Assembly (NCBI GenBank): GCA_905235455.1
Contig: CAJOLL010000006.1
Coordinates: forward strand, 31,835-55,834
Direction of reading: 5' to 3'
DNA length: 24,000 nt
Origin: an uncultured Clostridia bacterium
Lineage (GTDB): Bacteria; Bacillota; Clostridia; Saccharofermentanales; Saccharofermentanaceae
Below are positions 912-15,975 of this stretch, piece after piece. The notes under the pieces were generated by a model. It saw nothing but the letters and a program-made list of their open reading frames with translations, did not search any database and was not told the origin of the DNA. The position numbers were made by a program, and so were the translations under genes. Within the stretch, counting starts at the first letter, position 1, and the number at the start of each line of letters is the position of its first letter.

Positions 912-924
912 TTATTCAAGCTCG
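912..924. repeat. att core copy (attR side): TTATTCAAGCTCG
   Basis: Exact 13-bp direct repeat of 16645..16657, which encodes the last guaA codons (...IELE) plus TAA on the minus strand. Identity stops on both sides of the 13-mer. Confidence 0.75.
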
Positions 925-1024: not shown

Positions 1025-1045
1025 ATGTACCCAGAATGTACCCAA
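1025..1045 (+). repeat. tandem arm-type repeats ATGTACCCA x2 (11-bp phasing), attR arm
   Basis: TGTACCCAGAATGTACCCAA. The same tandem, TGTACCCAAAATGTACCCAA, occurs in the same orientation at 16567..16586 near the other end. Candidate binding sites for the integrase's AP2-like N-terminal domain. Confidence 0.55.
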
Positions 1046-1049
1046 TGAA

Positions 1050-2750
1050 TCAATCAACACTATCTTTTATTTGCATCATTTTTATCAACATCATTACCAA
1101 TCCATCTATGAACCCAGCTTTCTGTTCAATCAATATTTCGTTAATATCGTTTTTCTCCGTAGTAGCTACACAATTTGCTATGATGTGCTTCACGCGTTTT
1201 TCTGTACTCTCGCTCCACTCTGAACCTTGAGATAAAAACACATTTCTCATTCTATCGGACCACTTGGCATTTCCTTTAAACTCTTTGCACTTAAGATTAA
1301 TATTATACTCATCTTCCAGAGAATCAGCATAAACATCTGCTCTAATACAGTCTTCAAATTCAGATTCTGTAGATCCATTACAAATGGTCATCTTCACCTG
1401 AGAATCCTTTACGAGACCAATCTTTCGTGCTTTATCTATAGCTTCCTTTCCAGCTTTATCATTATCTAGTAATACGACAAAGCTACATAAGCTAGCCTTC
1501 AAATCCATTGCATCATGCGTTAAGTTCCCCACACCTGCCAACGGCTTAATAACTAATTGATTTGATAACAACACACTCCTCAATGCACTGCTTTTCATCG
1601 AAAGAATTCTTTCCAACGCAATCTTATCATTTTCACCCTCGACCAAAAGAACAAACCTGGAATGTTGAAGATTGTCGGATGGGATAACTCCGAGTATATT
1701 CCGTATTTCTTCAATACTTTTAGCAGGTCTAGCAGTACCAGAATCCACAATAATATTTGAGTTCAGTTTATTTTGCCGAACAAACAGAGGATTGTGTGTA
1801 GTTATAATTATTTGGTTGTGCTCAGATAATGAATTTATAACATCAATCAAATTGTGTATTGCGCCAGAATGAAGATGTGATTCCGGTTCTTCGATAGCAA
1901 TTATCGATGCTTTTTTTGTACTAATCCTATCCTTAAGAACGGCTAGAGTAACTAGACTTTTAATCCCATCACCTTTATTTGTAATACTAGTCAGCTCCCC
2001 ATCATCAATTAATACATCAAAGCCGTTATACAAGCGCCAATTCCTTGAGTTTTCACGAAGTTTACGGATACATATCTTTTTTAGATTAGGCAGAAAAACG
2101 TGTAATGGACCAAACAATTGTGCAGAAATATTATCCAGTATTTCTTGCTCTAGACTATCTACTTTGTCCATAGCCTCTACATATTCCTGATTATTCTGCA
2201 ACGATCGCAATTCTCCTGATATTGCCCATCTTAACGCGTCCAAAGCCATCTCTTCAGTTCGAACCGCTTGAATGTAATTGAAAGAAATATTCGTCGAGAT
2301 GAAGTGAGTAACCTGTTTTGAATTCCTGTTATAAGACGATGAACCTTTTTTAGGAACTTCAATTTTGGCCTTGTTATCACGTCCAAACTTAACAGTTATT
2401 GGAATATCTTCATTTCCTCTAATTTTGGTTAAGTCATGAAACTCAGTTAATTCATCTCCTTCCAATCTAAAATGCAGTTTAAAAATCGACTCAAGACCAT
2501 TCTTCCTATTCTGCAGAGATATTGGGAAATCACGATTCCAATTATATAAATACTCGCCCTCCAAATCTCTAAAATGATTATAATCCTGTGAATGCTGTAA
2601 AATAGCGCGCATGGCAATATTTAAAGCGGTAAGAAGATTGGATTTTCCTTCATTGTTTTTACCGACAAGAACTGTCATATCTTGAAGATTAATCTTGTGG
2701 GCTTTCGTTATACTTCTAAAGTTTGTTACTGAAAATTCCACTAATTTCAT
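1050..2750 (-). CDS. OLD-family nuclease (ABC/AAA_15-type ATPase plus C-terminal Toprim), stand-alone class-1-like
   Basis: The ORF-track start at 2756 is a GTG. The ATG two codons in (2750) lies 7 nt after GGAGGA and is preferred. ATPase motifs: Walker A GKNNEGKS, signature-like NKGDGIKS, Walker B IIAIEEPESHLH, TTHNP. Toprim motifs: LLVEGENDK (Glu) and VVLLDNDKAG (DxD). No UvrD-like partner is adjacent. Confidence 0.85.
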   Translation of the reverse strand: MKLVEFSVTNFRSITKAHKINLQDMTVLVGKNNEGKSNLLTALNIAMRAILQHSQDYNHFRDLEGEYLYNWNRDFPISLQNRKNGLESIFKLHFRLEGDELTEFHDLTKIRGNEDIPITVKFGRDNKAKIEVPKKGSSSYNRNSKQVTHFISTNISFNYIQAVRTEEMALDALRWAISGELRSLQNNQEYVEAMDKVDSLEQEILDNISAQLFGPLHVFLPNLKKICIRKLRENSRNWRLYNGFDVLIDDGELTSITNKGDGIKSLVTLAVLKDRISTKKASIIAIEEPESHLHSGAIHNLIDVINSLSEHNQIIITTHNPLFVRQNKLNSNIIVDSGTARPAKSIEEIRNILGVIPSDNLQHSRFVLLVEGENDKIALERILSMKSSALRSVLLSNQLVIKPLAGVGNLTHDAMDLKASLCSFVVLLDNDKAGKEAIDKARKIGLVKDSQVKMTICNGSTESEFEDCIRADVYADSLEDEYNINLKCKEFKGNAKWSDRMRNVFLSQGSEWSESTEKRVKHIIANCVATTEKNDINEILIEQKAGFIDGLVMMLIKMMQIKDSVD

Positions 2751-2763
2751 ATTCACATCCTCC

Positions 2764-5700
2764 TCATGCTACTCTCGCATTATCATTAATACCATCTATA
2801 ACCTTCCGGATTCCCATCCAGACGTTTAGATCCGTAAATATCTCTACCACGCTTCCCTGATCCGTGAATGGTGACTCCTGAAGCACAGACAAATCTTTCA
2901 TCATTCCGTTGTGAACAATATACTCAACAATCTGGTTTACAAAGTATATCTGCCGGCTGTCGAGATCATTGCTCTCAAGATACTCGGAGAAGGCTGCCTT
3001 TGCTGCATTCATATCAAGACCAACGATCTCCCGAACAAGTTCTCCCAACGGCTTAGTACCATATTCCTGCTCATACTCTTCCTTCGTTCCAAGATCCGAC
3101 CAAAGCACCTGTTCCAAAACCTCTATATCATCATGAGACAATGGTATATTTGACTTCAGTTTCTTTATAACTTCATTATCTTGATGCTCCCGGATATAAT
3201 ATTCAGCCTTCGCTTTATAATTCTTCAGATCATCATTATCAAGCTCCGATTCATTCCAGGAAACATCAAGAATATCATCATCGAAGTTTGTATCATAACG
3301 AAGATGCTTCTTTGGAATATACTTCATAAGATCACGAAGATTCTCTCTGATCTCTTCGAACTCGATCACACCACAATCCGTAATATAGTCCGTGTGGAGG
3401 ATCTTATCTATCAGCTCGGACTGTACTTTTATCTCCGGTATATTGGCCACACTTGCAATTCCACTAACACGTTTATACAGATCACTTCGTGCTCTGCCAT
3501 ATTTCTTACCTGCAAGATACGCAAGTTCAATACCATACATAAGTGCATCGAACCGCGCAGCACTTGCCTCGTCATCATTAGGCAATATCAACGGCGCTAA
3601 TTCTTCGCGAACAAGCAATGTATCTGCATATGTCAGCGTTTGATAATTAGCTTCTGCAGAATACAGATCAACATACTTCAGATGCTGTCTGACTGCAAAG
3701 TTCTCACGAGGTAGTTCCTGAACCTTTCCGGTCATCGCTTCCACCAATGCCTTACGGTAAGCTATAAATCTCTCTTCCTGGTAAGCAAGATCCTGCAGCT
3801 TATATGTGATCTCGAACTGCAGATTAAAGATAGCTCCCTGCAGCGCGATCATGTTTGCGGTTGGCTTGCCCTTGCTCATGCGGAAGAACTCGAAGTTCCC
3901 ACAAAAATCAAAAATATAAAACTTACTCTTATCTTCGCCATCAATTAGTCCCGGACACAATCTGGTTCCACGGCCTATCATCTGCCAGAACTTGGCGTAA
4001 CTCATTACCTTCTTGAAGAATACAAGATTCAAAACTTCCGGCACATCAATACCAGTATCCATCATATCAACGGAAATCGCTATCTGCGGGAGTTTGTTCG
4101 GATCAGAGAACTCATCTATCAATGTCTGTGCATAATTTATTCGATTATCAATAACCTGGGCAAAGCCATTTAGGTGCGGATAATCCTTGTTGAAGATCTC
4201 AAGTATCTTCTCCGCATGATCATGATTCTTGGCAAAGATAATCGTCTTACCAAGCTTCTGACCATAGTCGATCTTTATACCGTCTTTCATCACAGTATGA
4301 AGAACCTGACGAATCGTATCCTCATTGAAGATCCATGAATTCAAAGCAGACGAACTAATCGCTTCGGGCAACTCCCCGTCTTCCATTTCAAACGTATCTT
4401 CGTAGATAGCCTTGTCTTCTTCTGAAAGCTCATCATAAACAATGCCTTGTTCAATAAACTTCAACTTTGTCTCTACCGAAAGGAAGTCGACAAGATATCC
4501 GTCATTGACAGCTTGAGCAAGCTCATATCCGTATGTTGGAACACCCTGCTCCAGATCGAAAATCTCATACGTATTCTTATCAATATCATCCTTCGGCGTA
4601 GCAGTAAGACCAACAAGCGGCGCATCGAAGTAGGTAAAGATATCTCTGTATTTGTTATATATTGATCTATGCGCCTCGTCACATATTACAAGGTCGAAGT
4701 GTCCGCTGGTGAAAAGCTTCTGATTCTCAACCTTAACAGTGTCGATACAATTCATCATCGTCTGATATGTCGAGAAGACGCAGTGCGCATTGTAGTTATC
4801 TTTCTCTTCGCAGAGGTTTGTTACAGACAGCGATGAATAGTTATTTACAAAAGCACGCTTCGCCTGCGTAACAAGCGATGTTCTATCTGCCAGGAAAAGG
4901 ATATTCTTTACCCAACCTGCATCGAGAAGCACATGGCAAAGTTCAATTACCGTTCTAGTCTTACCGGATCCTGTTGCCATAACAAGGAGAGCCTTCCGGC
5001 GATTCTTCTTATCGAAACTATCACATACCGCCTTAATGGCCGCTTCCTGATAATATCTTCCGGCGATATTCTTATCTACATTAACATGAGCAAGAGATGT
5101 CCTCATCCTTCTGAGATTGAACATCTTCTCCAGATCGGCTTTGGAATAGATACATGCTACCTTTCTCTCAGGGTACTGCCCGTCTATGATCCTTGTATCA
5201 AATCCATTTGTAAGGAATATGCATGGTCTTCTTTTATACTGCTTCTCAAGAATATCTGCATAAAGTTTCGCCTGCTGGCGACCCTTAGATACATCAACAC
5301 AGGTTCTCTTGGCCTCGATAACGGCGAGAGGTTTGTGTGCATTATCAAAAAGAACATAATCAGCAAAACCCACTTCTGATTTATTTGGCATACCCGGGAG
5401 TTCAAGCTCATTGATCCAATCTGATCCCTCTTTCCATCCGGCATCGATAAGCATTGCATCAATATATATCTTACGAGTCTTATACTCGGAAAGATCTAAC
5501 GGCTTCGGCACATACGTCTCAAGCTGCTCTTCTCGACGAGAGGTCAACTCTTTCCGCAAAGCAGAATTTTCAGCAATAAGTTCTTTTATTTCAACATCCG
5601 GAAACTCAGTTTCAAACTTTGCATCTTCATCTTTTACAAGTAACGATTTATCAAAGGGATGTTCTTCATAATGATCAGCATAACAGTAGCACACGAAGTC

Positions 5701-6054
5701 AAAGAAAATCTGAAGATTCTCAAGACAAAGTATCGCTTGATCCTCAGTAATCTTCTTTCCGGAATGCGCAGCATTATTACCCATCTTACGAATGAAGTCC
5801 ATTCGCTTCATGAGATCATCATCAATAATGTCGCGAAACTCTTCCGTACTCATGAGGCTTATCAAGTTGTCCTGGTACGGCATCTGCAGTGAACTATCTA
5901 CGGAATACATCCACTTGATCGCAAACTCCATTGCTCTCCGGCAGTTGATAATACAGGAAGTAGGATCAATATACAGAATCTTCTCAGCCGCAATTGCCAC
6001 ATCAGAGAATGTGTTAAATTTCGGCTCATTTTTCAAATAATCGAAGTTGGTCAT
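2764..6054 (-). CDS. hsdR: Type I restriction enzyme R subunit (HsdR)
   Basis: 1096 aa. DUF4145-like N-terminus (AIAAEKILYIDPTSCIINCRRAMEFAIKWMY). PD-(D/E)xK nuclease motif (FADYVLFD...AVIEAKR). SF2 motifs: I MATGSGKT, II VICDEAH, III GLTATP, VI QMIGRGTR. C-terminal tail resembling the EcoEI R C-terminal domain. GGGAGG lies 7 nt before the ATG. Confidence 0.95.
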   Translation of the reverse strand: MTNFDYLKNEPKFNTFSDVAIAAEKILYIDPTSCIINCRRAMEFAIKWMYSVDSSLQMPYQDNLISLMSTEEFRDIIDDDLMKRMDFIRKMGNNAAHSGKKITEDQAILCLENLQIFFDFVCYCYADHYEEHPFDKSLLVKDEDAKFETEFPDVEIKELIAENSALRKELTSRREEQLETYVPKPLDLSEYKTRKIYIDAMLIDAGWKEGSDWINELELPGMPNKSEVGFADYVLFDNAHKPLAVIEAKRTCVDVSKGRQQAKLYADILEKQYKRRPCIFLTNGFDTRIIDGQYPERKVACIYSKADLEKMFNLRRMRTSLAHVNVDKNIAGRYYQEAAIKAVCDSFDKKNRRKALLVMATGSGKTRTVIELCHVLLDAGWVKNILFLADRTSLVTQAKRAFVNNYSSLSVTNLCEEKDNYNAHCVFSTYQTMMNCIDTVKVENQKLFTSGHFDLVICDEAHRSIYNKYRDIFTYFDAPLVGLTATPKDDIDKNTYEIFDLEQGVPTYGYELAQAVNDGYLVDFLSVETKLKFIEQGIVYDELSEEDKAIYEDTFEMEDGELPEAISSSALNSWIFNEDTIRQVLHTVMKDGIKIDYGQKLGKTIIFAKNHDHAEKILEIFNKDYPHLNGFAQVIDNRINYAQTLIDEFSDPNKLPQIAISVDMMDTGIDVPEVLNLVFFKKVMSYAKFWQMIGRGTRLCPGLIDGEDKSKFYIFDFCGNFEFFRMSKGKPTANMIALQGAIFNLQFEITYKLQDLAYQEERFIAYRKALVEAMTGKVQELPRENFAVRQHLKYVDLYSAEANYQTLTYADTLLVREELAPLILPNDDEASAARFDALMYGIELAYLAGKKYGRARSDLYKRVSGIASVANIPEIKVQSELIDKILHTDYITDCGVIEFEEIRENLRDLMKYIPKKHLRYDTNFDDDILDVSWNESELDNDDLKNYKAKAEYYIREHQDNEVIKKLKSNIPLSHDDIEVLEQVLWSDLGTKEEYEQEYGTKPLGELVREIVGLDMNAAKAAFSEYLESNDLDSRQIYFVNQIVEYIVHNGMMKDLSVLQESPFTDQGSVVEIFTDLNVWMGIRKVIDGINDNARVA

Positions 6055-6080
6055 ATGACTACCTCCCTCTTACGTTTATA

Positions 6081-6605
6081 TCATTTGAATAATTCCGGTT
6101 CTTCGTTATATAGCTCCAATAACCAAGGTTGCGGAACATAGGTCAATATCATTGCGTTGTTCCACCCTAGTGTAAACACCTGTTCAGGCATGTGTAAAAA
6201 CAAGTTATTAACCAAATAAATTGTATCTCCAGATGTCTTATCTAACGATATCGTTTTATCCTCGCTCCGCAACACCTGCAAAACTATTGCTTTTTGTCTA
6301 GGACTTAATGTCAGAAGCTTCTTCTTCAAGTTTTCTCGAATACGTTTATTTCTTCGTCTTGTAGAAATATCTGAAATAACAGAAAAGATGACTATGGTAG
6401 CTATCAATGCGATGCTCAGCAAAAAGATGATCCCTATAATTCGATTCCATAAGACTGGAAGTTCATTCAGATTCATCTTAGCCAATACCGACTCAGGAAG
6501 AAAAATAAGCAAGCCCGACAGTATCGCAACTGCTGCCAAGGCAGGCGTTATCTTCTTAAAATTATCAAAAGTCTTTTCGACTAAATTGTCAAAAGAAACA
6601 CTCAT
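6081..6605 (-). CDS. small 2-TM membrane protein, SieB (superinfection exclusion B)-like, embedded between hsdS and hsdR
   Basis: The track ORF is 6081..6626, but the internal ATG at 6605 (MSVSFDN...) is preceded by GGGAGGAGAG and the ATG at 6626 has no SD. Two hydrophobic helices (ITPALAAVAILSGLLIFLP and IIGIIFLLSIALIATIVIFSVI) are followed by the basic stretch TRRRNKRIRENLKKK and a roughly 90-aa soluble C-terminal domain. The LIFLPESVLAKMNL motif and the overall layout match my memory of the SieB family (PF14163). Not searched. Confidence 0.5.
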   Translation of the reverse strand: MSVSFDNLVEKTFDNFKKITPALAAVAILSGLLIFLPESVLAKMNLNELPVLWNRIIGIIFLLSIALIATIVIFSVISDISTRRRNKRIRENLKKKLLTLSPRQKAIVLQVLRSEDKTISLDKTSGDTIYLVNNLFLHMPEQVFTLGWNNAMILTYVPQPWLLELYNEEPELFK

Positions 6606-6618
6606 TTTTCTCTCCTCC

Positions 6619-7809
6619 CTATCCAAAATACTCTTGCATCAAACTATCAAAAAGTAATTGAGTTTTTTCTAATGCTTTCTGCACCTCAACTTTTGATTTG
6701 TCGACTTGTTCACAAAATGAGTCAAACTCTATCTGAAGGTTCATAGGCGGCACAAAAGCCTCCAAACTATTAATCATATTTGTATACAGGCCCGCCTGCG
6801 CAGCTGCGTGCGAACAATGATCAATGTCATTCTGAATCGATTCGCTTCTCAATACGTTTATAAGGAAATTACTTGTAACCATTTCCTTATTAGGTTTTAT
6901 CAAAGCGACACTACGGGCCATACTGAATTCACCCATCGTTTCTGGAACTAATGTGCATTTTCCAATTGTTGCCCCTACGCATACAAGGAGCAAATCATCC
7001 TTTTCTGGATTACATCTTTTATATATCTTCTCATGGATCTCTTGAGGAACAAAAGATGTTTCAGATAAATTGATTTCACCATCTTTTGTAATATTACGTG
7101 CCATGAAATAAAGATATCCTTCACCTTCATCAACTCTTGGAACTGTGCCGTGCTCTCCATCAGTAATTTTTGTACTGACATCCTTGAACGTACATTTCTT
7201 CCACCCATGCTCATTTGTTTTTATATCACCAAAGAGCTCGACAAATCGGGCTTTGATAAGTTCATCCAGCATCTCAAGTTCATGTTGTCTTTTTTTAATA
7301 ATCCCTTCCAGTTTAGAAATTCGTTCAATTATCTCTTTTTGCTGATCCAATGCCGGTAGAGATATTTCCATCTTATTGGCATTCTGAATTGTAAAGGTTC
7401 CTACCGTTGTTCCGCTGGAATTTTTGGATATAAAATCCTTTACTTCCTTTGAATCAAATGCCTTTACAAGATATTCCGGCAAGATCCTTTCTGGTGCTTT
7501 TTGTCTAAACCATAGGATATTTCCATCTTTGAAGTAAAACTTGTCTTCTGGTTTTACAATATAACAAACTCCCAACGTGCCAACGCCAGTTACCATTACG
7601 TCACCTGGCTGAGGTTTACCATATTTCTCTGTGTACTCTTCGTAAAGTTCTTCATCTATGAATAGCTCATTATCGACATAACCATCTTCCGATAATCGCG
7701 CAATTTCCCTCGCCCTATAAAAAGGTATTCCCTCTTCTCTCCATTCAGATTGAAAAACTCTTTTACTAGAGCCTATATCATAAAGATTGCTTAGTTTTTC
7801 TTTTGCCAT
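6619..7809 (-). CDS. hsdS: Type I R-M specificity subunit (HsdS)
   Basis: 396 aa. Two variable target-recognition halves are separated by conserved helical spacers: a central LDQQKEIIERISKLEGIIKKRQHELEMLDELIKARFVELFG and a C-terminal QKALEKTQLLFDSLMQEYF. Located within the hsdM...hsdR block. Confidence 0.9.
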   Translation of the reverse strand: MAKEKLSNLYDIGSSKRVFQSEWREEGIPFYRAREIARLSEDGYVDNELFIDEELYEEYTEKYGKPQPGDVMVTGVGTLGVCYIVKPEDKFYFKDGNILWFRQKAPERILPEYLVKAFDSKEVKDFISKNSSGTTVGTFTIQNANKMEISLPALDQQKEIIERISKLEGIIKKRQHELEMLDELIKARFVELFGDIKTNEHGWKKCTFKDVSTKITDGEHGTVPRVDEGEGYLYFMARNITKDGEINLSETSFVPQEIHEKIYKRCNPEKDDLLLVCVGATIGKCTLVPETMGEFSMARSVALIKPNKEMVTSNFLINVLRSESIQNDIDHCSHAAAQAGLYTNMINSLEAFVPPMNLQIEFDSFCEQVDKSKVEVQKALEKTQLLFDSLMQEYFG

Positions 7810-7825
7810 ATCATCCCTACAAATC

Positions 7826-8860
7826 TCAATTTATTGATTCATCATCATTCAACATCCATATCCTCTTAAGAGGAATGTCTGCCTGCATATCTGGACTTAA
7901 CTTTTCGTAATTAGCAAAGAGTTCGTTAATTACATCATTTGAATCCCATAATCTTATTCTGAAGAACTGATTTCCACGCTCTTTTTCTACGCTCGACTTA
8001 AAACCGCTCCAAGAAACAAGCAATCCATATTCCGCTCCGACTTTATTCATAACGCCACCCAACTGATCAAGTATAGAGCGTTCTATTGGAGCGTCTTGCG
8101 TCTTAACCTGCACACATATTTTCGGGGAGCCAAAACCCATCGTACCACCGGAAGCAAGTAGATCTTTTCCGCCATCAGCCCCCTGTTTGCTGTGATAAAC
8201 GGTAAAACCCTTTGCTGCTAACAGCTCACAAATTAATTCCTCCATTCTGTATCCCTTAAATTTATGAAGGATATACTTAGAGATTGCATCTCTAGCAGCT
8301 AATTCAATATCTGTTGTCGTTTCAAAGTCACTATCAGTACCGTCAGGGAAAACCGCATCAGCTGCAGTTGAAACTTTCCAATTATTCTTTTCCATTGCCT
8401 TAAGGCGCTTCTCTGCATCGTTTCTGGTAATCTGACACACAGTCATGAATGCACCAAATGAATACAAAATATCCTGATCGAAATTACTCCTCGGAATATC
8501 AGTCGCAAACCATTTAACCTCAATATAATGCTTATACGGACTTACTGCTTTTTCATCATATGTATAAGATCCGATAACTTTAGCAAAATGTATAGTACTC
8601 GATCTTTTGCTCGGCAAAACGATCCAGTCCTCCTCCTGGATTTTATTGGCAAATGGATATATTTGAGATGCCCAATTCTTAATCGTATTCGGCTTTTCAG
8701 ACGAATATATTTCGTTTAACTTGGATAAAAGCTTCTCTCTGTTCTTATACTTAGTTAAATCAATATCAAGCTCTCCCCATGTAAGATAGATTTTCTTGTC
8801 ATTGAGGAATTTATCTTCATACTGCCCTTTACTTCCTGCACGCACTAACCAGATACTCAT
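7826..8860 (-). CDS. Mrr-family (Type IV-like) restriction endonuclease with a non-canonical N-terminal domain
   Basis: The C-terminal half has an Mrr_cat-type PD-(D/E)xK core (GADGGKDLLAS...PKICVQVKTQ...LLVSWSGF). The N-terminal roughly 160 aa (MSIWLVRAGSKGQYEDKFL...YIEVKWF...FGAFMTVCQI) is not the winged-helix N-terminus I remember from E. coli Mrr. GGGAG lies 9 nt before the ATG. Confidence 0.75.
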   Translation of the reverse strand: MSIWLVRAGSKGQYEDKFLNDKKIYLTWGELDIDLTKYKNREKLLSKLNEIYSSEKPNTIKNWASQIYPFANKIQEEDWIVLPSKRSSTIHFAKVIGSYTYDEKAVSPYKHYIEVKWFATDIPRSNFDQDILYSFGAFMTVCQITRNDAEKRLKAMEKNNWKVSTAADAVFPDGTDSDFETTTDIELAARDAISKYILHKFKGYRMEELICELLAAKGFTVYHSKQGADGGKDLLASGGTMGFGSPKICVQVKTQDAPIERSILDQLGGVMNKVGAEYGLLVSWSGFKSSVEKERGNQFFRIRLWDSNDVINELFANYEKLSPDMQADIPLKRIWMLNDDESIN

Positions 8861-8876
8861 ACATTTTGACTCCCTT

Positions 8877-10373
8877 CTATTTTAATAGCTTTTCAAGTTC
8901 ATCCATCTCTACCGCTATCTGTTTTTCGATATCTCTGATACTCGCCATGATCTCCGATGTCGGCGGATATACTACAGGAACATACTCGACTTCCTTATAC
9001 TTATTAATCGAGAGATCATAGTCATTATCTGCAATTTCCTTCTTTGATACCATGAACGATTTTTCTGTGCGCTTTCTGTCCTTCTCGGCATCAAGATTCT
9101 TGAATCGGTTTATGATATCAGGAATATCATTGTCCTTGATCTCTGCGCGCTTATCATCAAGGCTGAATCCGTCGGCAGTCATATCGTAGAACCATACATT
9201 ATCCGTTCCGCCGTGGCCTGTCTTAGTGAAGATAAGTATACCGGTAGACACTCCGGCATACGGCTTAAATACACCGGACGGCATAGAGATAACGGCTTCT
9301 AGCCTTTGGTTCTCAATAATCTCTTTTCGTATAGCCTTATGAGCATTGGATGATCCAAACAGCACTCCGTCCGGTACGATACATGCACATCTTCCGCCGA
9401 CTTTAAGCATTCTTACAAACAGAGCCAGGAAAAGTAATTCAGTCTTCTTTGTCTTGCACATTTTCTGCAGGTCCGTTGACACCGTATCAGCATCGAGATT
9501 CCCCTTAAATGGAGGATTTGCAAGGATAAGCGAATACATGTCTTTATCCGGATTCTGATCAGATAGACTGTCTCTGTATTCTATGAAAGGATTATCTACA
9601 CCGTGCGTCATCATGTTCATGGCACCGATACGAAGCATAGTTCTGTCCATATCGTATCCGTGGAACATATCGTTCATGAAGTGATTTCTGTTTTGTTTAT
9701 CGAGAAGAACTTCTTTCTTATACTTTTCTCTAAGATAGTCGCCACTCGTGACAAGGAATCCGGATGTTCCGCATGCCGGGTCACAGATAGAATCTGTCGG
9801 TTTCGGATCCATCATCTCGACCATCATTCGTATGATGTGTCGTGGCGTTCTAAACTGACCATTTACACCTGACTGTGAGATCTTGGAAAGAAGATATTCA
9901 TATACGTCACCACGTATATCCGTCTGATGAAGTTCCTCCATCATGGAGTATATCTCATCCATAGCATCTACGATCTTGGAGAGCATCAATGGTGTATTTA
10001 CCTTGAAAATAGCATCATCCATGTACTTGCTATATGCAGAATTCTTATCTCCGTGAAGATTCTTTATAAACGGGAATACCCATTCCTGCACAACAGAATA
10101 CATGCGCTGTGCCGGAAAATCGTGGAACGTCGACCATTTGAGTTGATTCCCGTCGACCTTACGATCTCCAATCTCAACTTCATCTGCAAAGATACTCTTG
10201 TAGGGAAGTCCAAGCATTGCTGCTTCCTTTGCACGAAGATTATCTGTATCATCGAGATCCTTAATGAACATTAGATATGTCATCTGTTCAACGACATCAA
10301 GAGGATTGGTGATTCCGCCATTCCAGAATATCTCCCACAAACTATCGATCTTATTACCCAGTTCTCCGGTCAT
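8877..10373 (-). CDS. hsdM: Type I R-M N6-adenine DNA methyltransferase subunit (HsdM)
   Basis: 498 aa. HsdM_N-like N-terminus, AdoMet motif DPACGTSGFL, catalytic NPPF (LILANPPFKG). AGGAG lies 8 nt before the ATG. Confidence 0.95.
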   Translation of the reverse strand: MTGELGNKIDSLWEIFWNGGITNPLDVVEQMTYLMFIKDLDDTDNLRAKEAAMLGLPYKSIFADEVEIGDRKVDGNQLKWSTFHDFPAQRMYSVVQEWVFPFIKNLHGDKNSAYSKYMDDAIFKVNTPLMLSKIVDAMDEIYSMMEELHQTDIRGDVYEYLLSKISQSGVNGQFRTPRHIIRMMVEMMDPKPTDSICDPACGTSGFLVTSGDYLREKYKKEVLLDKQNRNHFMNDMFHGYDMDRTMLRIGAMNMMTHGVDNPFIEYRDSLSDQNPDKDMYSLILANPPFKGNLDADTVSTDLQKMCKTKKTELLFLALFVRMLKVGGRCACIVPDGVLFGSSNAHKAIRKEIIENQRLEAVISMPSGVFKPYAGVSTGILIFTKTGHGGTDNVWFYDMTADGFSLDDKRAEIKDNDIPDIINRFKNLDAEKDRKRTEKSFMVSKKEIADNDYDLSINKYKEVEYVPVVYPPTSEIMASIRDIEKQIAVEMDELEKLLK

Positions 10374-10385
10374 AATCGAACTCCT

Positions 10386-11444
10386 TTACTCGTTATCTCT
10401 GTTCCAAACATACTTTGTATATCTTCCGCCACCGATCTTTATGATCTTCTCCGCTGCCAACAGGTCTGACAACGTTCTTTCAACGGTTATGCGGCTGATA
10501 TCCGGACACTTCTCCATAATCTGTGATTTTGTTATCTCGCCGTATGTGCTCTTAATGAGCTCTGCGACACGCTCAGGCTTAGACAGGCCACTCTCGATCA
10601 ACGTCTGAACCCTGTCTGAGAAATCACGATATGCCGCAACTACTACACCCAGCATATACTGAACAAAAGGAGCGTAATTGTTATTTCCTTCATGCCAGTC
10701 GATCGAGCTTTCTTGCAGACACTCGTAGTATGAATCCTTGGTCTTCTCTATGAGATGCTCAATACTTATGTACTTTCCGACTATGTATCCGGCTCTGTAT
10801 AACAAGAGTAAAGTTAGGAGACGACTCATCCTTCCGTTACCATCGTTAAACGGGTGTATACACAAAAAATCGAGAATGAACATAGGTATTAAAAGAAGCG
10901 GATCTATCGTCCCTGCTCCCATCGCCTTTGCAAACTCGTCGCAAAGAAGTTCTACCGCTTCCGGAGTCTCCCATGCAGAAACCGGCCTGAAGCGGACAAA
11001 CTTATTACCCTGAGCATCCTCTTCTTCAATGATATTATCCGTTGGCTTATATTTCCCACCGAAATCATGGCCCTCGAACTTATATAAATCTCTATGAAGT
11101 TGCAGGATCATATTGGGCCTTATCGGTATATGATCGTGACTCTCATGAATTGTATTAAGTACATCTCGATAACCGGCAATCTCCCTTTCACTTCTCGTCC
11201 TTGGAGTTGTCTTATCCTTTACTATCGCCTTCAAACGGGCATCCGAAGTATAAATACCTTCTATCTTGTTTGACGCCTCAGTACTCTGTATCTTTGCAAT
11301 CTCAACAAGCTGCGTCAACACATCCGCCTTGGCTTCAATAAAAAGCGACTGCTCACCCTTATACTCATGTATCTGTGAAAGCAGTGCCACAATTTCCGGT
11401 GTCAGTAGCTTTTGCCATTTGTTACTGTAGTCAAATGATCTCAT
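10386..11444 (-). CDS. fic: Fic-family protein (probable AMP-transferase), class II type with N-terminal inhibitory motif and C-terminal wHTH
   Basis: Canonical Fic motif HPFNDGNGRMSRLL. An inhibitory (S/T)xxxE(G/N) motif, SNKIEG, lies near residue 60. The C-terminal region (ITKSQIMEKCPDISRITVERTLSDLL) looks like a winged helix. It is the first gene of the operon. Confidence 0.9.
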   Translation of the reverse strand: MRSFDYSNKWQKLLTPEIVALLSQIHEYKGEQSLFIEAKADVLTQLVEIAKIQSTEASNKIEGIYTSDARLKAIVKDKTTPRTRSEREIAGYRDVLNTIHESHDHIPIRPNMILQLHRDLYKFEGHDFGGKYKPTDNIIEEEDAQGNKFVRFRPVSAWETPEAVELLCDEFAKAMGAGTIDPLLLIPMFILDFLCIHPFNDGNGRMSRLLTLLLLYRAGYIVGKYISIEHLIEKTKDSYYECLQESSIDWHEGNNNYAPFVQYMLGVVVAAYRDFSDRVQTLIESGLSKPERVAELIKSTYGEITKSQIMEKCPDISRITVERTLSDLLAAEKIIKIGGGRYTKYVWNRDNE

Positions 11445-11502
11445 TTTAATAACCTCATTTTTGTTTCAATATACTCATTAGCAAGTATTATGATGTAGTT
11501 TA

Positions 11503-11531
11503 ATAATATTATGCAATATACTCATTGTCAA
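11503..11531 (-). promoter_or_regulatory. sigma-A type promoter of the fic-hsdM-mrr-hsdS-sieB-like-hsdR-old operon
   Basis: The reverse strand reads TTGACA (11531..11526), 17 nt, TATTAT (11508..11503), about 50-60 nt upstream of the fic ATG. One copy of a 13-nt direct repeat fills the spacer. Confidence 0.55.
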
Positions 11532-11534
11532 CGT

Positions 11535-11587
11535 TAATTGCATCAAATTTGCACAAATGATGCAATTAAGCAATTAATGATGCAATT
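11535..11587. promoter_or_regulatory. cluster of TAATTGCATCA / TGATGCAATTA half-sites just upstream of the operon -35
   Basis: TAATTGCATCA (11535..11545) is the exact inverted repeat of TGATGCAATTA (11558..11568). AATGATGCAATT recurs at 11576..11587, 20 nt after 11556..11567. A related TTTGCACAAA lies between the arms. Confidence 0.45.
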
Positions 11588-11597
11588 GGAGAGTCTA

Positions 11598-11628: not shown

Positions 11629-12873
11629 TCATCGCTCTACGCCTTTTCTTCTGTGATTTTCCGTTCTCGGCATATTCTTAACGATCTCTTCCTTCTCACG
11701 AAGTGTTGCAAGGAGAGACTTCTTCGCCTCCCTACGGATCGGCTCAAGGTTTTGCTTTTTCATCTCGGGACTTTGTAAGGTCATGATAATCTTTTGTGTG
11801 ATGTTCGACATCGCATTCTTTATCCTCCTAGAGACCGCATCGAGAACCTTCTCCGCAAAGTTCTTTTCTTTGATTGGATAATGCTTTGCCTTGTCTTCCA
11901 GCTTGGCACGGACCTCATTAACCTGGTGAAGATCCGCTTTCATCGTCTCAATCTGAACGGTATTCGTTACTACCTCCACCGCCTTGTCATAGGCTGCTTC
12001 TGCAACTTCATCGACCAAGGTTTCGAGCTCTTCGACCTTAAGTGTCATCTCATCAAGTTGGGTTTGAACCTGAGATAATTCTGCTTCCTTCTGTTCAAGG
12101 ATCTCTTTCTGCTTTTGGATAATATAATCCTGCTTCTCGAGATACTTTCTGGATCCGTATTCCGGTTCCTGATCAAGATGGAGTCCGTGCTTCTCGCAGA
12201 TATCAAATAAGATAACTCTGCAAGTAGCATCGAACGTGACCTTGCGGTTGTTTGTCTTACTCATCTTCTTATCGAGATACGGAAGTTCAAACCCGAGTTC
12301 CTCGAGAGCCTTTTCCTGCTGCGGCATCAATTCTCCGTATTTGTTTTTGCAATCGAACACATGTCGCTCGTGAATGTGAGGAGTTGCTTCGTCCAGATGC
12401 AGAGACCAGTCCAGGATATGAACATATTCACCGAAGCGGCGATCGAATTCTTCATAAAAATCTTCTGCGATCTGTGCAAGCACTTCGGGTGATACCGAGT
12501 CTTCCATCGTTCCGATCTGAAGGATCGTTTCTTCAGGACATGTCCTTCTGTCCTGTCTCAGATCTTCCGTGTCTCGATTTCTTTCCGGATGCCCGGTCTT
12601 CTTATTTCTTTCATGCTGTCCGTCACAATACTCCTGGTAATGATCAGAGTAGTATGCCTCTTCGACCTCTTCAAAAGAGAATCGCACTTTATCTTCTGAT
12701 TCATCATCCATTGGATTGTGATAACCCTGATAGCAGTCCCAGTAGATGTTACCCTTTGCTCGTTCCTGATCAATATGATCAGCCAGTTCAAGATCAAATC
12801 TTCTATCATTATGCTTTGCACTATATGCTCCATCCTTGCCGGTTCGCCCATTATGTCTTGTTAGTTTTGTCAT
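11629..12873 (-). CDS. mob: MobV-family (Mob/Pre, plasmid recombination enzyme) relaxase
   Basis: 414 aa. The HxDE...PHxH signature is present as HLDEATPHIHERHVF. The N-terminal region contains TRHNGR (HxxR-like). The C-terminus is long and coiled-coil-rich. AGGAGG precedes the ATG. Confidence 0.85.
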   Translation of the reverse strand: MTKLTRHNGRTGKDGAYSAKHNDRRFDLELADHIDQERAKGNIYWDCYQGYHNPMDDESEDKVRFSFEEVEEAYYSDHYQEYCDGQHERNKKTGHPERNRDTEDLRQDRRTCPEETILQIGTMEDSVSPEVLAQIAEDFYEEFDRRFGEYVHILDWSLHLDEATPHIHERHVFDCKNKYGELMPQQEKALEELGFELPYLDKKMSKTNNRKVTFDATCRVILFDICEKHGLHLDQEPEYGSRKYLEKQDYIIQKQKEILEQKEAELSQVQTQLDEMTLKVEELETLVDEVAEAAYDKAVEVVTNTVQIETMKADLHQVNEVRAKLEDKAKHYPIKEKNFAEKVLDAVSRRIKNAMSNITQKIIMTLQSPEMKKQNLEPIRREAKKSLLATLREKEEIVKNMPRTENHRRKGVER

Positions 12874-12909
12874 GATTATTACCTCCTGTCAGTGTAGTGA
12901 TTCTGAGAT

Positions 12910-13090
12910 CCTGCCTTGAAAACTTGTTTTCATCGGCAGGTAATAACCCAGTATGAAGTGACGATGCTCATCACTTTACTGGGCGGGGAGTATGCCCTCG
13001 ACCCCTTGCAGGCGCTTTCACCCTGCACCCGAAGAAGAGGACAACCTCTTCGCTCCGAGATCGTCCCCGAGGCTATAAGTGCCCGGAGCC
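12910..13090. other. candidate oriT / structured region upstream of mob
   Basis: Nested hairpin CCTGCC-TT-GAAAAC-TT-GTTTTC-ATC-GGCAGG (12910..12940). Bulged 13-bp hairpin CCCAGTA..AAGTGA-loop-TCACTT-TACTGGG (12947..12983). Hairpins TGCAGG/CCTGCA (about 13006..13026) and GAAGAGG-ACAA-CCTCTTC (13034..13051). Motif TAAGTGCCC at 13076..13084. This stretch is locally GC-rich inside an AT-rich element. Confidence 0.4.
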
Positions 13091-13105
13091 GACATATATA
13101 TTTCC

Positions 13106-13188
13106 GTGACGATGGTGACGGTTGTGACGGTCATTTATAGACCGCACCCCACTCCCAAATCTATCGTCACTATCGACACGACCGTCAC
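13106..13188. repeat. two inverted triplets of 9-bp-phased iterons (GTGACGRT-type)
   Basis: Left arm: GTGACGAT (13106..13113), GTGACGGT (13115..13122), GTGACGGT (13124..13131). Right arm in inverse orientation: ATCGTCAC (13163..13170), ATCGACAC (13172..13179), ACCGTCAC (13181..13188). A 31-bp spacer separates the arms. The last iteron contains the stop codon of the AAA_25 gene. Confidence 0.7.
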
Positions 13189-14237
13189 GCTTTCCATGGA
13201 TCATAGATGACTCTGATCCTCCTTCCATCGTGAGTGCGCATCGATTTATATTCGACGTTGTATTCCTGTGCCAGTCTCCCAAGATTGACATTCAGATACA
13301 TCGTAAGTTTGTTTGGTGCCATATCGAGCCCCAACAACTTGACGAACTCTGATGGGGAGCCTTCCCAGCAAAAGAACTTGTTGGTAAATGCAGCAACCTT
13401 TTCCAGGATCGGATCGGCAGGAGGGGTTATCTCCTCCGCTTCTACCTTAGTTATTTCCCAGATCAGTGTTTCCGCATTTCTGTTCAGATACAGTTTTTGA
13501 TCCATTTGATCCCTTCCGGAGATCTCGAGGATCGCTTCACTTCCTACTCTCTTATCCTTGTGAAGAATAAATGCTCCGTCTGCTGCACCGTGTATGGCAG
13601 TAGTACCGGAAATCATCTCGAAGTGATCATCGGATTGTTGCTTTCTTGTGTGATGTACGATTAATAGACTGATACCGGTAAAGTCGGTAAATGCCTTGAG
13701 CTTACCGATTGTCTCGTAGTCATTTGCATAACTGTACTTATCGTTGCCCTGTTCTTTAACCTTTTGAAGGGTGTCAATGATGATTAGGGTAGTGTCAGGG
13801 TGATCATCCCTAAAAGCTTCCATCTGATTGATCAGATTGCCTTCAAGGGTATCGGACCTTGTAGCCAGATACAGATCATCAGCACACTCCGTCCCAAACA
13901 TACGAAAGAGACGCTCCTGAAGTCTTCTCAGGTCGTCTTCGAGTGCAAGGTATAGTACTGTTCCCTTATGAGCGTGATACCCCCACATATCCGTACCTGT
14001 TGCTACATGATATGCGATCTGAAGCATGAGGAAGCTCTTACCGAGCTTCGGAGCTCCTGCGAAGATATACGTTCCGGGAAGAATCAATCCGTCTATGATC
14101 GGCGGTCTCTTCTGAAAAGATTGATCATACAACTCGGTCATTGATACCGTCTGTAGATTTTTATCATCAATCTGATTGTAAAATGTTGCGATACTGCTTA
14201 TTTCTTCATCGATTACTCTGTCTAATTGGTTTTCCAT
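13185..14237 (-). CDS. AAA_25 / RepA-like RecA-fold ATPase (element replication or processing helper)
   Basis: 350 aa. Walker A GAPKLGKS, followed by YLALEDD and a Walker B-like LIIIDTL, then LLIVHHTRK. This pattern is typical of the AAA_25/RepA-like proteins of plasmids and IMEs. GAGGAGG precedes the ATG. Confidence 0.7.
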   Translation of the reverse strand: MENQLDRVIDEEISSIATFYNQIDDKNLQTVSMTELYDQSFQKRPPIIDGLILPGTYIFAGAPKLGKSFLMLQIAYHVATGTDMWGYHAHKGTVLYLALEDDLRRLQERLFRMFGTECADDLYLATRSDTLEGNLINQMEAFRDDHPDTTLIIIDTLQKVKEQGNDKYSYANDYETIGKLKAFTDFTGISLLIVHHTRKQQSDDHFEMISGTTAIHGAADGAFILHKDKRVGSEAILEISGRDQMDQKLYLNRNAETLIWEITKVEAEEITPPADPILEKVAAFTNKFFCWEGSPSEFVKLLGLDMAPNKLTMYLNVNLGRLAQEYNVEYKSMRTHDGRRIRVIYDPWKA

Positions 14238-14253
14238 TATTACCTCCTCGTGT

Positions 14254-14556
14254 TTATTGATTCATCAGCGCCAGCAATTCTTTGACTGTTGTGTGGAGCT
14301 CGTAAATCGCTTCGTTGTCTCCGTTTTCTGTTCTTCTCATGAGTTCTTCCAGAGCCATCGCCAAACGGTCTGATTTATATCTTCCTGATACGATTTGTAT
14401 CTCTTGCCCGGTAACAGCTGATCGGTAGTACTCACCCTTTGGTATTCCTGCGATTTTGATCCTGGCCTCAACGATTCTTTTCTCCTCATCGCTGAGCCAG
14501 AATGCGATCGTGTTGTGTCTTCTTCTAGCTTCTCTTTTGCATGGCATCTTTATCAC
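14254..14556 (-). CDS. MobC-like ribbon-helix-helix relaxosome accessory protein
   Basis: 100 aa. A basic N-terminus is followed by IAFWLSDEEKRIVEARIKIAGIPKGEYYRSAV, matching the R-x-I-x-F-x-L-T/S-x-x-E...G-x-S-x-x-E-Y-x-R pattern of MobC/RHH mobilisation proteins. Non-ATG (GTG) start in the track. Overlaps the int 3' end by about 30 nt. Confidence 0.6.
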   Translation of the reverse strand: MIKMPCKREARRRHNTIAFWLSDEEKRIVEARIKIAGIPKGEYYRSAVTGQEIQIVSGRYKSDRLAMALEELMRRTENGDNEAIYELHTTVKELLALMNQ

Positions 14557-15616
14557 CTTTACTTACCTTTCCTAATGTATTTGCTATTTTCTGTTGTGCG
14601 TCCATTGACTGATGGCAGTATGTCTCGATGGTGGTAGTTACCCGCCCGTGTCCAAGTCTCCTTGCGATCGCCTGTGCGCTGAACCCGAGCTCTACAAGCA
14701 TCGATGCATGTGAGTGTCGAAGACAGTGGATAGTGATCCTTTTTACTCCGCTGTTCTTGATTCCCCTTTGCATCTCCTTCTCAAAGAAGCTTTTTGTCTT
14801 TTCTGCGAAAAGCCTCGTATCCGGCTTTGCTTTGTAGATATGAGAGATATACTCCTCAATAATTTCCGCCAGATCCTCATGGATAGTGATCACACGGATC
14901 GAGCTTTCTGTCTTGGGAGTTGAAATAATGTCCTTCCCGTTGAGTCTGGTATACGATTCATCTATACGAACCGTCAGATCATCGAGATCGATATCTTCGA
15001 CTTTGAGTGCTAGGAGTTCGCCGATACGCATTCCTGTCCAGAACAGGATCTGAAATGCAACCCATGCTTCATACTTATCACTTACCGCATCGATGAAGGA
15101 TTGAAACTCTTCAAGAGTCCAAAATGGTCTTTCGTCTGCTCGCGACTTTCCCATACTCCCGGCCCTCTTACAGGGATTTGCCCTCAGATCGTAGTAGCTC
15201 ACTGCATAATTAAGGATGGCGGACAACTGATTGTTGATCGTCTTTAGATACGTTGCCTTATACCCCTTCTCCATCATTTCTCCTTGCCACTTACGGATCG
15301 TAGCTGCAGTGATCTGACTGAGGGGCATATTGCCGAAATATGGAAGGAGCTTATCGGTAACGATATACTCCTTGTTCACCATTGTCGTTACCTTAAGACG
15401 TTTTCCCATATCCGCCTTATAGATTTCCCAGAAATCCTTAAAAAGCATACCGGGATCTGCGGCTTGCTGAAGCAGAAAGCGGTTCAACCATTCTTCCGCT
15501 TCCTTCTTCGTCTTAAAGCCTTTTCGAGATGTCTTCCGGATAGTTCCTGTCCAGTCTTTATAACGGAACTGAATGTGCCAGGTACCGTTGGGATCTCTCT
15601 TGGCACTGTTTGCCAT
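14525..15616 (-). CDS. int: tyrosine site-specific integrase (Tn916-like, AP2-type arm-binding N-terminus)
   Basis: 363 aa. N-terminal KRDPNGTWHIQFRYKDWTGTIRKTSRKGFKTKKEAEEWL (AP2-like integrase DNA-binding domain). Catalytic residues in WTGMRIGELLAL (Arg), HCLRHSHAS (His-x-x-Arg) and LGHGRVTTTIETYCH (His...Tyr). Confidence 0.95.
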   Translation of the reverse strand: MANSAKRDPNGTWHIQFRYKDWTGTIRKTSRKGFKTKKEAEEWLNRFLLQQAADPGMLFKDFWEIYKADMGKRLKVTTMVNKEYIVTDKLLPYFGNMPLSQITAATIRKWQGEMMEKGYKATYLKTINNQLSAILNYAVSYYDLRANPCKRAGSMGKSRADERPFWTLEEFQSFIDAVSDKYEAWVAFQILFWTGMRIGELLALKVEDIDLDDLTVRIDESYTRLNGKDIISTPKTESSIRVITIHEDLAEIIEEYISHIYKAKPDTRLFAEKTKSFFEKEMQRGIKNSGVKRITIHCLRHSHASMLVELGFSAQAIARRLGHGRVTTTIETYCHQSMDAQQKIANTLGKVSKGDKDAMQKRS

Positions 15617-15816
15617 TACGCGATCACCTCCTCGCCGTGAGAACCACCGAAGTACCTCTCATCAAAGTAGTCCTTAGACACTTTTCCTTCGACTACCAGA
15701 TACCCCTTTTCCTTAAGTTCCCGGTTGAGCTGCTTTACGATACCGTAGGCAGTAGTACGACCTACGCCGACCATAAAAGCGACTTCGTTTGCTGTGTAGT
15801 ACAGTTTTTTGTTCAT
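15616..15816 (-). CDS. xis: excisionase / small HTH DNA-binding protein (Xis-like)
   Basis: 66 aa with a helix-turn-helix (YTANEVAFMVGVGRTTAYGIVKQL). Its TAA overlaps the int ATG (TAATG), suggesting translational coupling. AGAGGTGA precedes the ATG. Confidence 0.75.
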   Translation of the reverse strand: MNKKLYYTANEVAFMVGVGRTTAYGIVKQLNRELKEKGYLVVEGKVSKDYFDERYFGGSHGEEVIA

Positions 15817-15873
15817 TTGTTTTCACCTCTTTCCTCTAGATTTGTATCATGCGTATCATTTGATACGCTTGTG

Positions 15874-15902
15874 ATAATAGCGTATCTTTTGATACGTGTC
15901 AA
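15874..15902 (-). promoter_or_regulatory. xis-int promoter
   Basis: The reverse strand reads TTGACA (15902..15897), 17 nt, TATTAT (15879..15874). The 17-nt spacer is exactly operator O2, and O1 lies just downstream of the predicted start. Confidence 0.6.
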
Positions 15903-15911
15903 TAGATAATC

Positions 15912-15940
15912 TTGAAAAATCGTATCTTTTGGTATAGAAT
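15912..15940 (+). promoter_or_regulatory. xre regulator promoter
   Basis: TTGAAA (15912..15917), 17 nt, TAGAAT (15935..15940). Operator O3 overlaps the spacer and the -10. AAGGAG lies 8 nt before the ATG at 15976. Confidence 0.5.
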
Positions 15941-15975
15941 GGCATCAATTGATACGTTTACAAGGAGAATAGCCT

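Follow-up and report, generated by a model that had tools for sequence, protein, structure and literature searches.

A Type I restriction-modification operon with a Fic leader gene and exchangeable defence cargo on an integrative mobilisable element of an uncultured Clostridia bacterium

A stretch of 24,000 nucleotides (nt) from an uncultured rumen or gut Clostridia bacterium (GenBank assembly GCA_905235455.1, contig CAJOLL010000006.1, positions 31,835 to 55,834 of the forward strand; the whole stretch is called the window) was analysed for a seven-gene operon in which the genes of a Type I restriction-modification (R-M) system, hsdM, hsdS and hsdR, are interleaved with four further genes. The operon is carried as cargo by an integrative mobilisable element of 15.7 kb that is inserted into the 3' end of guaA. 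It probably provides layered defence and occupies a hotspot already known for the embedding of such genes, and its protection is taken to be mostly additive because the slots between the R-M genes collect independent defence genes. The four additional genes are of three kinds: a Fic leader gene, a slot-restricted gene for a SieB-like membrane protein, and genes for an Mrr-like nuclease and an OLD-family nuclease that also occur free-standing elsewhere. The features of the operon and its promoter region are as follows.

10386..11444, minus strand: fic, class II Fic enzyme, 352 amino acids (aa); Pfam Fic 1e-14, DIP2311-like_C 1e-6
10407..10586, minus strand: winged-helix DNA-binding domain of Fic, recognition helix at about residues 317-328
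8877..10373, minus strand: hsdM, Type I methyltransferase subunit, 498 aa; HsdM_N and N6_Mtase
7826..8860, minus strand: gene of the Mrr-like nuclease, 344 aa, guest in the hsdM/hsdS slot; DUF8426 and Mrr_cat
6619..7809, minus strand: hsdS, specificity subunit, 396 aa; Methylase_S in two stretches
6081..6605, minus strand: gene of the SieB-like membrane protein, 174 aa, in the hsdS/hsdR slot; Pfam SieB
2764..6054, minus strand: hsdR, EcoAI/EcoEI-like (type IB) restriction subunit, 1096 aa; Pfam and PADLOC
5650..6054, minus strand: DUF4145 (HEPN-type) domain of HsdR, residues 1-135; Pfam
1050..2750, minus strand: gene of the solo OLD-family nuclease, 566 aa, after hsdR; ABC ATPase and Toprim
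11503..11531, minus strand: sigma-70-type promoter TTGACA-17-TATTAT, score 11/12
11534..11587, unstranded: predicted operator region, inverted repeat plus a third half-site at 11578-11587
11467-11484 and 11514-11531, unstranded: 18-nt direct repeat (89% identity) within 11467..11531

All seven genes are co-directional on the minus strand in the order fic, hsdM, mrr-like gene, hsdS, SieB-like gene, hsdR and OLD gene. This order had been given in a preliminary description made from the sequence alone, and it was borne out by the list of open reading frames (ORFs) and by the junction read-out, together with the intergenic gaps of 12, 16, 16, 13, 26 and 13 nt from fic to the OLD gene and with the starts at 6605 (SieB-like protein, 174 aa) and 2750 (OLD, 566 aa), both of which agree with the gene calls of the public contig. 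Purine-rich Shine-Dalgarno sequences of the GGAG/GAGG type were found before all seven starts, as had been described, the weakest being that of hsdS. The domain identities proposed earlier were confirmed for all seven proteins by Pfam and PADLOC.

The promoter TTGACA-17-TATTAT was the sole promoter-like site above 9/12 across 13 kb, in line with the single consensus-grade promoter of the preliminary description; all other sites scored 9/12, and the total of 31 was below the shuffle mean of 35.7. A -35 box TTGAC was found at the equivalent position in most related loci. One copy of the 18-nt direct repeat covers the -35 box and the other lies in the 5' leader. The terminator scan returned 9 terminator-like matches, which is the chance level (7.9 +/- 2.8 in shuffles); none was located in an intergenic gap, and the four minus-strand matches were weak and inside coding sequence, so that the reported lack of an internal hairpin terminator was upheld. 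The first good stop downstream of the OLD gene is an intrinsic terminator at 874-898, beyond the mobile element. A single transcript over the seven genes would agree with their spacing and strand and with the scans for promoters and terminators. The co-directional mob gene of the element stops about 100 nt upstream of the operon promoter, and a GC-rich hairpin of 9 bp without a T-run (11597-11617) lies between the mob stop codon and this promoter; the hairpin may insulate the operon only partially from backbone transcription, and read-through from upstream is therefore possible.

Relatives of the operon were surveyed in the best 80 of at least 596 related genome loci, namely the closest hsdM loci in species-representative genomes, and in a few dozen metagenome contexts. 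Nearly all of the 80 loci belong to rumen or gut Clostridia, e.g. Butyrivibrio, Lachnospiraceae and Oscillospiraceae. By tblastn, hsdR was present in every locus whose contig extends far enough, a SieB-like relative was found in a single locus (L005), and Mrr-like or OLD relatives were found in none of the 80. The hsdM-hsdS and hsdS-hsdR distances differ by kilobases among loci. Of the 51 loci in which hsdM and hsdR are both present, 41 hold at least one non-R-M gene in these intervals (64 protein clusters). Recurrent cargo comprises a HipA-like kinase, DUF3800, DUF3990 (ART-like) with a partner, Bro-N, AbiJ, DUF4062 and a CAP12-type TIR protein; the 88 cluster representatives add GmrSD, AbiH, AbiU2-HEPN, YhcG, PycC, NsnA, HEC-06 and nine PDC families (PDC-S02, S04, S13, S31, S32, S34, S35, S37 and S72). 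The lineage is a scaffold of the form fic-hsdM-slot-hsdS-slot-hsdR-slot with fast-exchanged cargo. The layered system that the preliminary description had offered as one of two alternatives fits these comparative data on the slots.

The same turnover is seen in the nearest relatives. Loci L084 and L089 share fic (95% identity), hsdM (100%), the mrr-like gene (96%), the SieB-like gene (96%) and hsdR (98%) with the window, and their hsdS is only 31% identical. In their post-hsdR slot (13870-15195), the OLD gene is replaced by a gene for a 441-aa protein with weak HEPN (RiboL-PSP/Apea-like) matches; a protein of this type is likewise listed for the post-hsdR slot of L004 (7860-9182). A conserved seven-gene set was not recovered: the exact set was found only on the source contig and in one partial copy. 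An identical SieB-like protein in the same gene order is encoded on the ENA contig ERZ27234817:k141_1976068.

Nesting of this kind has precedents in the rlo and mlo ORFs of Campylobacter, which are defence genes in Type I loci (cited in PMC11411939), and in the "guilt-by-embedding" survey of Payne et al. from which the PDC families originate (bioRxiv 10.1101/2024.01.29.577857). The window resembles both in its same-strand non-R-M genes nested among hsdM, hsdS and hsdR, and it resembles the candidates of Payne et al. also in that its Mrr-like gene belongs to PDC-S02 and that the cargo of the sister slots consists mostly of known or candidate defence genes. Unlike these cases, the lineage of the window adds a Fic-winged-helix leader and a fusion of HsdR with a HEPN domain, and its SieB-like gene has no PADLOC model. 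That Type I loci can harbour nested defence genes is already established, and the window is one more example.

The two guests outside the hsdS/hsdR slot are predicted nucleases. The Mrr-like protein matched Pfam Mrr_cat (7e-20) and, over residues 1-341 (profile positions 1-345 of 346), the PADLOC candidate PDC-S02 (PDLC04815; 4.8e-142), and its catalytic residues D233, Q251 and K253 are invariant in the alignment. A Foldseek search with its AlphaFold2 (AF2) model returned AspBHI (3e-7) and MspJI (2e-6) with a probability of 1.0 at a TM score of only about 0.3. Relatives of this protein were located after an unrelated Type I hsdR beside McrBC, alone among housekeeping genes, and in another defence island; the look-up of identical proteins yielded just the known partial contig. 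The OLD protein matched Pfam AAA_15, AAA_21 and Toprim_2/4 as well as the PADLOC models AriA (ATPase part only), Old and GajA. Its motifs are intact (Walker A G30KNNEGKS; Toprim E371 in LLVEGEND, and D429-N-D431). Homologues with 61-75% identity lie beside MNT/HEPN pairs or in an unrelated defence island, and a further homologue is carried by a different element of the same integrase-NikA-AAA_25-Mob type. Because the relatives of both genes are free-standing outside this hsdMSR lineage, the Mrr-like and OLD genes appear to be independent, portable defence genes.

A predicted modification-dependent nuclease nested in a Type I system is also known from TgvAB, a GmrSD-like two-protein system in the Type I R-M locus of Vibrio cholerae VPI-2, where modified and unmodified DNA are both covered (PMC11411939). 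Unlike TgvAB, the guest of the window is a single MspJI/AspBHI-like, Mrr-type protein in the hsdM/hsdS slot. The OLD protein fits class 1 (P2 Old type; PDB 6P74) in that ABC ATPase and Toprim form one polypeptide with no helicase partner and no adjacent UvrD-type helicase. In contrast to the P2 Old type, it is only weakly similar to solved OLD proteins (1.7e-4), stands behind hsdR and is not phage-borne.

HsdM matched HsdM_N and N6_Mtase (Pfam 4.5e-65 and 1.6e-10) and the PADLOC model MTase_I (1.6e-186); HsdS has two target-recognition domains and matched PADLOC Specificity_I over its full length (3e-68). HsdR comprises HSDR_N, ResIII (4.8e-38), SWI2_SNF2, Helicase_C and EcoEI_R_C (7e-21) and matched PADLOC REase_I (1e-160). 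Its membership in the type IB sub-family is approximate, since it scored 254 bits against the NCBIfam EcoAI family, for which the cut-off is 550. At the N-terminus, residues 23-114 of HsdR matched DUF4145 (9e-16) with the motif IR89KMGNNAAH97, whose R, GN and AH positions reach at least 90% conservation among 43 HsdR homologues. DUF4145 is a HEPN ribonuclease (RNase) domain for which fusions with restriction and helicase modules have been noted (PMC3710099), and RAZR, a defence protein, has it as its catalytic RNase domain (PMC13017515); the spacing R89-x7-H97 equals that of R146/H154 in RAZR. The HEPN domain of HsdR could, on these motifs, serve as an RNase back-up.

The Fic gene had been regarded in the preliminary description as an inserted effector. 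It is instead the conserved leader gene of the lineage and not a guest, as judged from its position: by tblastn, fic was located upstream of hsdM in 59 of the 78 informative loci, directly adjacent except in L063 and L068. The remaining 19 related loci lack fic. In several of them (L036, L056, L083, L058, L066), a Fic C-terminal remnant or a small gene of the XRE-type helix-turn-helix (HTH) class precedes hsdM; the remnant (GGRYTKY...) is fused to the hsdM leader.

The Fic protein matched the PADLOC SoFic model (6e-38). The closest solved relative is PDB 8UQU ("Fido domain-containing protein"; 1e-83), SoFic following at 1e-6, and the score against the SoFic equivalog NCBIfam NF046030 was 50.5 bits, far below the cut-off of 550. 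The inhibitory motif S58NKIEG agrees with (S/T)xxxE(G/N) and the active-site motif H197PFNDGNGRMSR with HxFx(D/E)GNGRxxR; across 54 homologues, the defining residues show 94-100% conservation, with lower values at the variable x positions (K60 52%, N200 72%).

At 2 nt from the -35 box, the operator region contains a perfect 12-nt inverted repeat, TTAATTGCATCA-N12-TGATGCAATTAA, with arms at 11534-11545 and 11558-11569. Exact copies of AATTGCATCA occur three times in the 24 kb, all at the operon promoter. A palindrome AATTnnnTCA-N12-13-TGAnnnAATT with 10-nt arms was detected upstream of fic in 43 of 54 loci, in most of which it ends 3-6 nt from the -35 TTGAC. Its central bases vary by locus, and both arms change in step. 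The variation is matched by the recognition helix of Fic: in counts that do not correct for phylogeny, T at residue 319 pairs with GTCA in 27 of 28 arms and non-T (I/V) with ATCA in 56 of 58 (p 7e-20), and E at residue 322, where the alternative is Q, pairs with C at the neighbouring operator position in 16 of 16 arms (p 5e-11). The pairing of T319 with GTCA recurs across several Fic sub-lineages. Raw mutual information did not single out the winged helix; the entropy-normalised version and direct inspection did, and the alignment columns whose entropy operator type explains best lie clustered at Fic residues 308-322. Because the winged helix co-varies with the palindrome that abuts the -35 box, Fic is probably the autoregulator of the operon through binding to this predicted operator, and it is possibly a latent toxin as well. 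The pairing of residue 319 (T versus I/V) with GTCA versus ATCA amounts to a testable regulatory code. It would tie a toxin-type enzyme to the control of a restriction operon and bears on the safe establishment of mobile R-M operons in new hosts.

Two Fic proteins offer a comparison. CccR, a Fic-HTH protein, was footprinted on AGATAATCAT-N26-ATGATAATCT near the -35/-10 boxes and represses its own promoter (PMC9755527), and SoFic, the product of mloA, is an AMPylator of EF-Tu that binds to its own promoter in dimeric form (bioRxiv 10.64898/2026.07.09.737422). The Fic protein of the window shares with them the domain architecture, the Fic motif and the inhibitory helix, and its half-sites (...ATCAT/ATGAT...) near the -35 box resemble the CccR operator. 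The arm spacing in the lineage of the window is 12-13 bp versus 26 bp for CccR, and the Fic gene of the window heads a Type I R-M operon. Among R-M operons, the RptR-RMS-DarTG2 island of enteropathogenic E. coli likewise has seven ORFs, and they stand behind a single promoter, as predicted for the operon of the window (PMC12255303). As in the window, there is a leader gene, in that case for the RptR repressor, which binds repeats overlapping the promoter; a guest is again placed between hsdS and hsdR, and another gene follows downstream. RptR, a 9-kDa repressor, has no enzymatic domain, and DarTG2, a toxin-antitoxin pair, is the guest of the E. coli island, whereas the leader of the window is a 352-aa Fic protein fused to a DNA-binding domain. 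In the window both R-M junctions are occupied, and its regulation is deduced from sequence. No description of a Fic-winged-helix leader with a co-varying operator at the head of a Type I operon was found in the literature searched.

PrrC of EcoprrI, a type IC system, consists of an ABC ATPase and a HEPN anticodon nuclease and is encoded in the hsdS-hsdR gap; the R-M complex keeps it silent until the attack by Stp of phage T4 unleashes it. PrrC is the only well-studied R-M-guarded effector. The SieB-like gene of the window occupies the same gap. Its product matched Pfam SieB (PF14163; 6.6e-18, 65.1 bits versus a cut-off of 26) with residues 31-158 on profile positions 2-129 of 147, and no PADLOC v2.0 model matched. 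Its AF2 model, which gave no significant match in the PDB, shows a pair of long transmembrane helices together with a small alpha/beta domain at the C-terminus.

A metagenome scan with the SieB-like protein yielded 8 loci, and the contexts were completed by exact-protein look-ups. In all of the about 17 contexts (about 8-10 distinct arrangements), the gene is placed between hsdS and hsdR of this R-M lineage (L005, L084-L090, L092-L100; 58-97% identity), usually 27-33 nt before hsdR; L091 retains just a 26-aa SieB-like remnant. The identities of the SieB-like protein and of HsdR are discordant (87% versus 67% in L085, 81% versus 92% in L005), and therefore the cassette moves between loci and lands in the same slot. 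A scan of viral contigs detected no SieB-like relative. For SieB, exclusion of superinfecting phage encoded by a prophage would be expected; the setting of the SieB-like gene is different, namely an R-M operon of a mobilisable element and no prophage. Directly upstream of the SieB-like gene, a 104-aa ORF without a family is often found (L005, L024, L095-L100; L098 8684-8998); it is absent from the window, where the SieB-like gene directly follows hsdS.

The SieB-like gene is the only guest with a PrrC-like distribution; PrrC, too, is almost confined to the position between hsdS and hsdR. Unlike PrrC, its product is a two-helix membrane protein without a recognisable enzymatic domain and belongs to a type IB-like system. 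It is the best candidate for an R-M-dependent abortive-infection effector, and a PrrC-like dependence on the R-M complex is possible. No description of SieB in Type I loci, or of such a slot-restricted SieB-like gene, was found in the literature searched; the protein is a new candidate effector whose distribution mirrors that of PrrC.

For the layered operon, the activities that we infer from the domains would combine as follows. A dimeric Fic winged helix would bind AATTnnnTCA-N12-13-TGAnnnAATT beside the -35 box and autoregulate the whole operon in the manner of CccR and SoFic, and the auto-inhibited Fic domain may be a latent AMPylating toxin, with EF-Tu as the target by analogy with SoFic. 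HsdMSR would restrict unmodified DNA, with the HEPN domain of HsdR as a possible RNase back-up, and the Mrr/MspJI-like enzyme would cut modified DNA escaping Type I restriction, a complementarity as in TgvAB. The OLD and SieB-like proteins would add further, probably abortive, layers. The three slots would act as recombination hotspots gathering independent defence genes, and co-transcription would give joint regulation and joint mobility, not one integrated machine.

A more closely knit arrangement was also considered, in which Fic would control a widespread Clostridial Type IB R-M family and at the same time act as its sentinel, the SieB-like protein would be an R-M-dependent effector and HEPN the back-up. 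This combination is rather unlikely to hold in full. If true, Fic would repress via the operator, and phage attack or a new host would switch it to AMPylating a translation factor, so that abortive-infection back-ups would be built into this Type I lineage, which would be more than a landing pad for guests.

It is unlikely that the operon is a guard system, in which HsdMSR would hold some or all of the embedded proteins inactive until a phage anti-restriction protein releases them, as with PrrC in EcoprrI. The preliminary description had proposed that every junction houses an effector monitored by the R-M complex, and this proposal stood only in part. The SieB-like gene shows the expected co-inheritance, in the PrrC position, with none of the about 17 contexts outside this R-M lineage and no relative in the viral contigs scanned. 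Fic is also co-inherited with hsdM, and the HEPN domain fused to HsdR retains a conserved catalytic-type motif and belongs to the superfamily that includes the PrrC nuclease domain (PMC3710099). For the Mrr-like and OLD genes the proposal failed: their relatives are not co-inherited with the lineage and occur in contexts without any Type I system. Moreover, the composite is not conserved, and the sister slots hold dozens of unrelated genes, which would not be expected if specific protein-protein contacts guarded all of them. Even the SieB-like protein has no PrrC-like ATPase or nuclease domain, and its confinement to one slot may reflect mere cassette exchange via the conserved hsdS and hsdR flanks. 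As regards any cross-talk between the genes, a guard role would be possible only for the SieB-like gene and Fic.

The guests could instead be selfish or neutral cassettes which hitch-hike at recombination-prone junctions, use the operon promoter and contribute little to defence here. The extreme slot turnover among close relatives, including hsdS swapped alone in L084, would suit this explanation, as would the shufflons of the lineage: 26 integrase-cluster ORFs were counted in at least 17 of the 80 loci, and a tyrosine recombinase with a second or third hsdS was located between hsdS and hsdR (L009, L013-L015, L018, L022, L027, L029, L031, L036 and others), which constitutes a phase-variable specificity shufflon. 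The window has none. In L096, a Tn7-like transposon (TnsA, TnsB, TniB, TniQ; 2218-9739) directly follows a truncated hsdR (648 aa). However, the three guests keep their catalytic or structural motifs and strong Shine-Dalgarno sites, their families have demonstrated or candidate anti-phage roles, and the slot cargo of the relatives is mostly of the defence type and not of the mobilome type, so that hitch-hiking without much defence is quite improbable.

One integrated system of a named type, either MADS-like or a PARIS- or Gabija-type module fused to R-M, is very improbable: HsdM, HsdS and OLD gave weak PADLOC/NCBIfam matches to mad2, mad5 and mad3 and the ATPase half of OLD matched AriA and GajA, but the MADS scores are far below the NCBIfam cut-offs (MAD2 105 versus 720, MAD5 55 versus 400, MAD3 47 versus 420) and no other MADS components are present, no AriB (DUF4435 Toprim) match was obtained on the C-terminal half of OLD, and OLD is followed by an att site and not by a helicase ORF of the GajB/UvrD type. 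PARIS, Gabija and MADS were therefore rejected. The earlier view that the composite is not a named system holds, yet the phenomenon is published, and the unnamed seven-gene composite is not a system in its own right.

Several points weigh against the layered, mostly additive operon as the preferred reading. The survey covered the best 80 of the related loci, and the Fic/operator covariation statistics ignore phylogeny. Given the TM score of the Mrr-like model, its inter-domain geometry is uncertain, and the likeness to MspJI and AspBHI is probably at the level of domains only. The slot confinement of the SieB-like gene could be a real functional coupling that an additive model understates. Embedded genes of Type I loci have already been used for gene discovery, and the composite adds one example to them and two specific, testable leads. 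The hundreds of sister loci with swapped cargo form a natural set in which independent action of embedded genes can be compared with action mediated by the R-M system.

The mobile element that carries the layered operon is delimited by the following features.

912..924, unstranded: attR core, 13-nt direct repeat of the guaA 3' end (TTATTCAAGCTCG), from the repeat match
16645..16657, unstranded: attL core, second copy of TTATTCAAGCTCG, last codons and stop codon of guaA, from the repeat match
1026..1043, minus strand: putative integrase arm-type site GGGTACATTCTGGGTACA, twin at 16567-16584
11629..16527, unstranded: element backbone with a MobV/Mob_Pre-like relaxase, AAA_25, a NikA-like protein, a tyrosine integrase, an excisionase-sized ORF and an XRE-type repressor
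874-898, unstranded: intrinsic terminator, a palindrome with a stem of 11 bp, immediately beyond attR

The target gene guaA (16645-18186) encodes a GMP synthase of 513 aa. An 18-nt motif, GGGTACATTnTGGGTACA, is present just inside each end of the element (2 matches versus 0 expected). The att assignment had been doubted on account of the downstream flank shared with L084; it is supported because L084 carries the same guaA-end junction (right end) and the terminator, and the junction is present in L089 as well. From its position immediately beyond attR, the terminator at 874-898 probably belonged to guaA originally, and it is now also the first good stop of the operon. A comparison of positions 1-12000 of the window with E. 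coli genomes and PLSDB plasmids gave no near-identical match. Just outside attR, a minus-strand ORF of 181 aa (108-653) had no Pfam or PADLOC family match. The end of a second contig from the same sample (L117) coincides exactly with the 3' end of guaA; this suggests a mixed population in which some cells carry the element and others lack it. An 18-nt palindromic motif, TGCGTATCATTTGATACG, occurs once just after the OLD gene (974-991). About four related copies are clustered at 15850-15960, in the interval that separates the excisionase-sized ORF from the XRE repressor gene, and the repressor of the element probably uses the motif as its operator.

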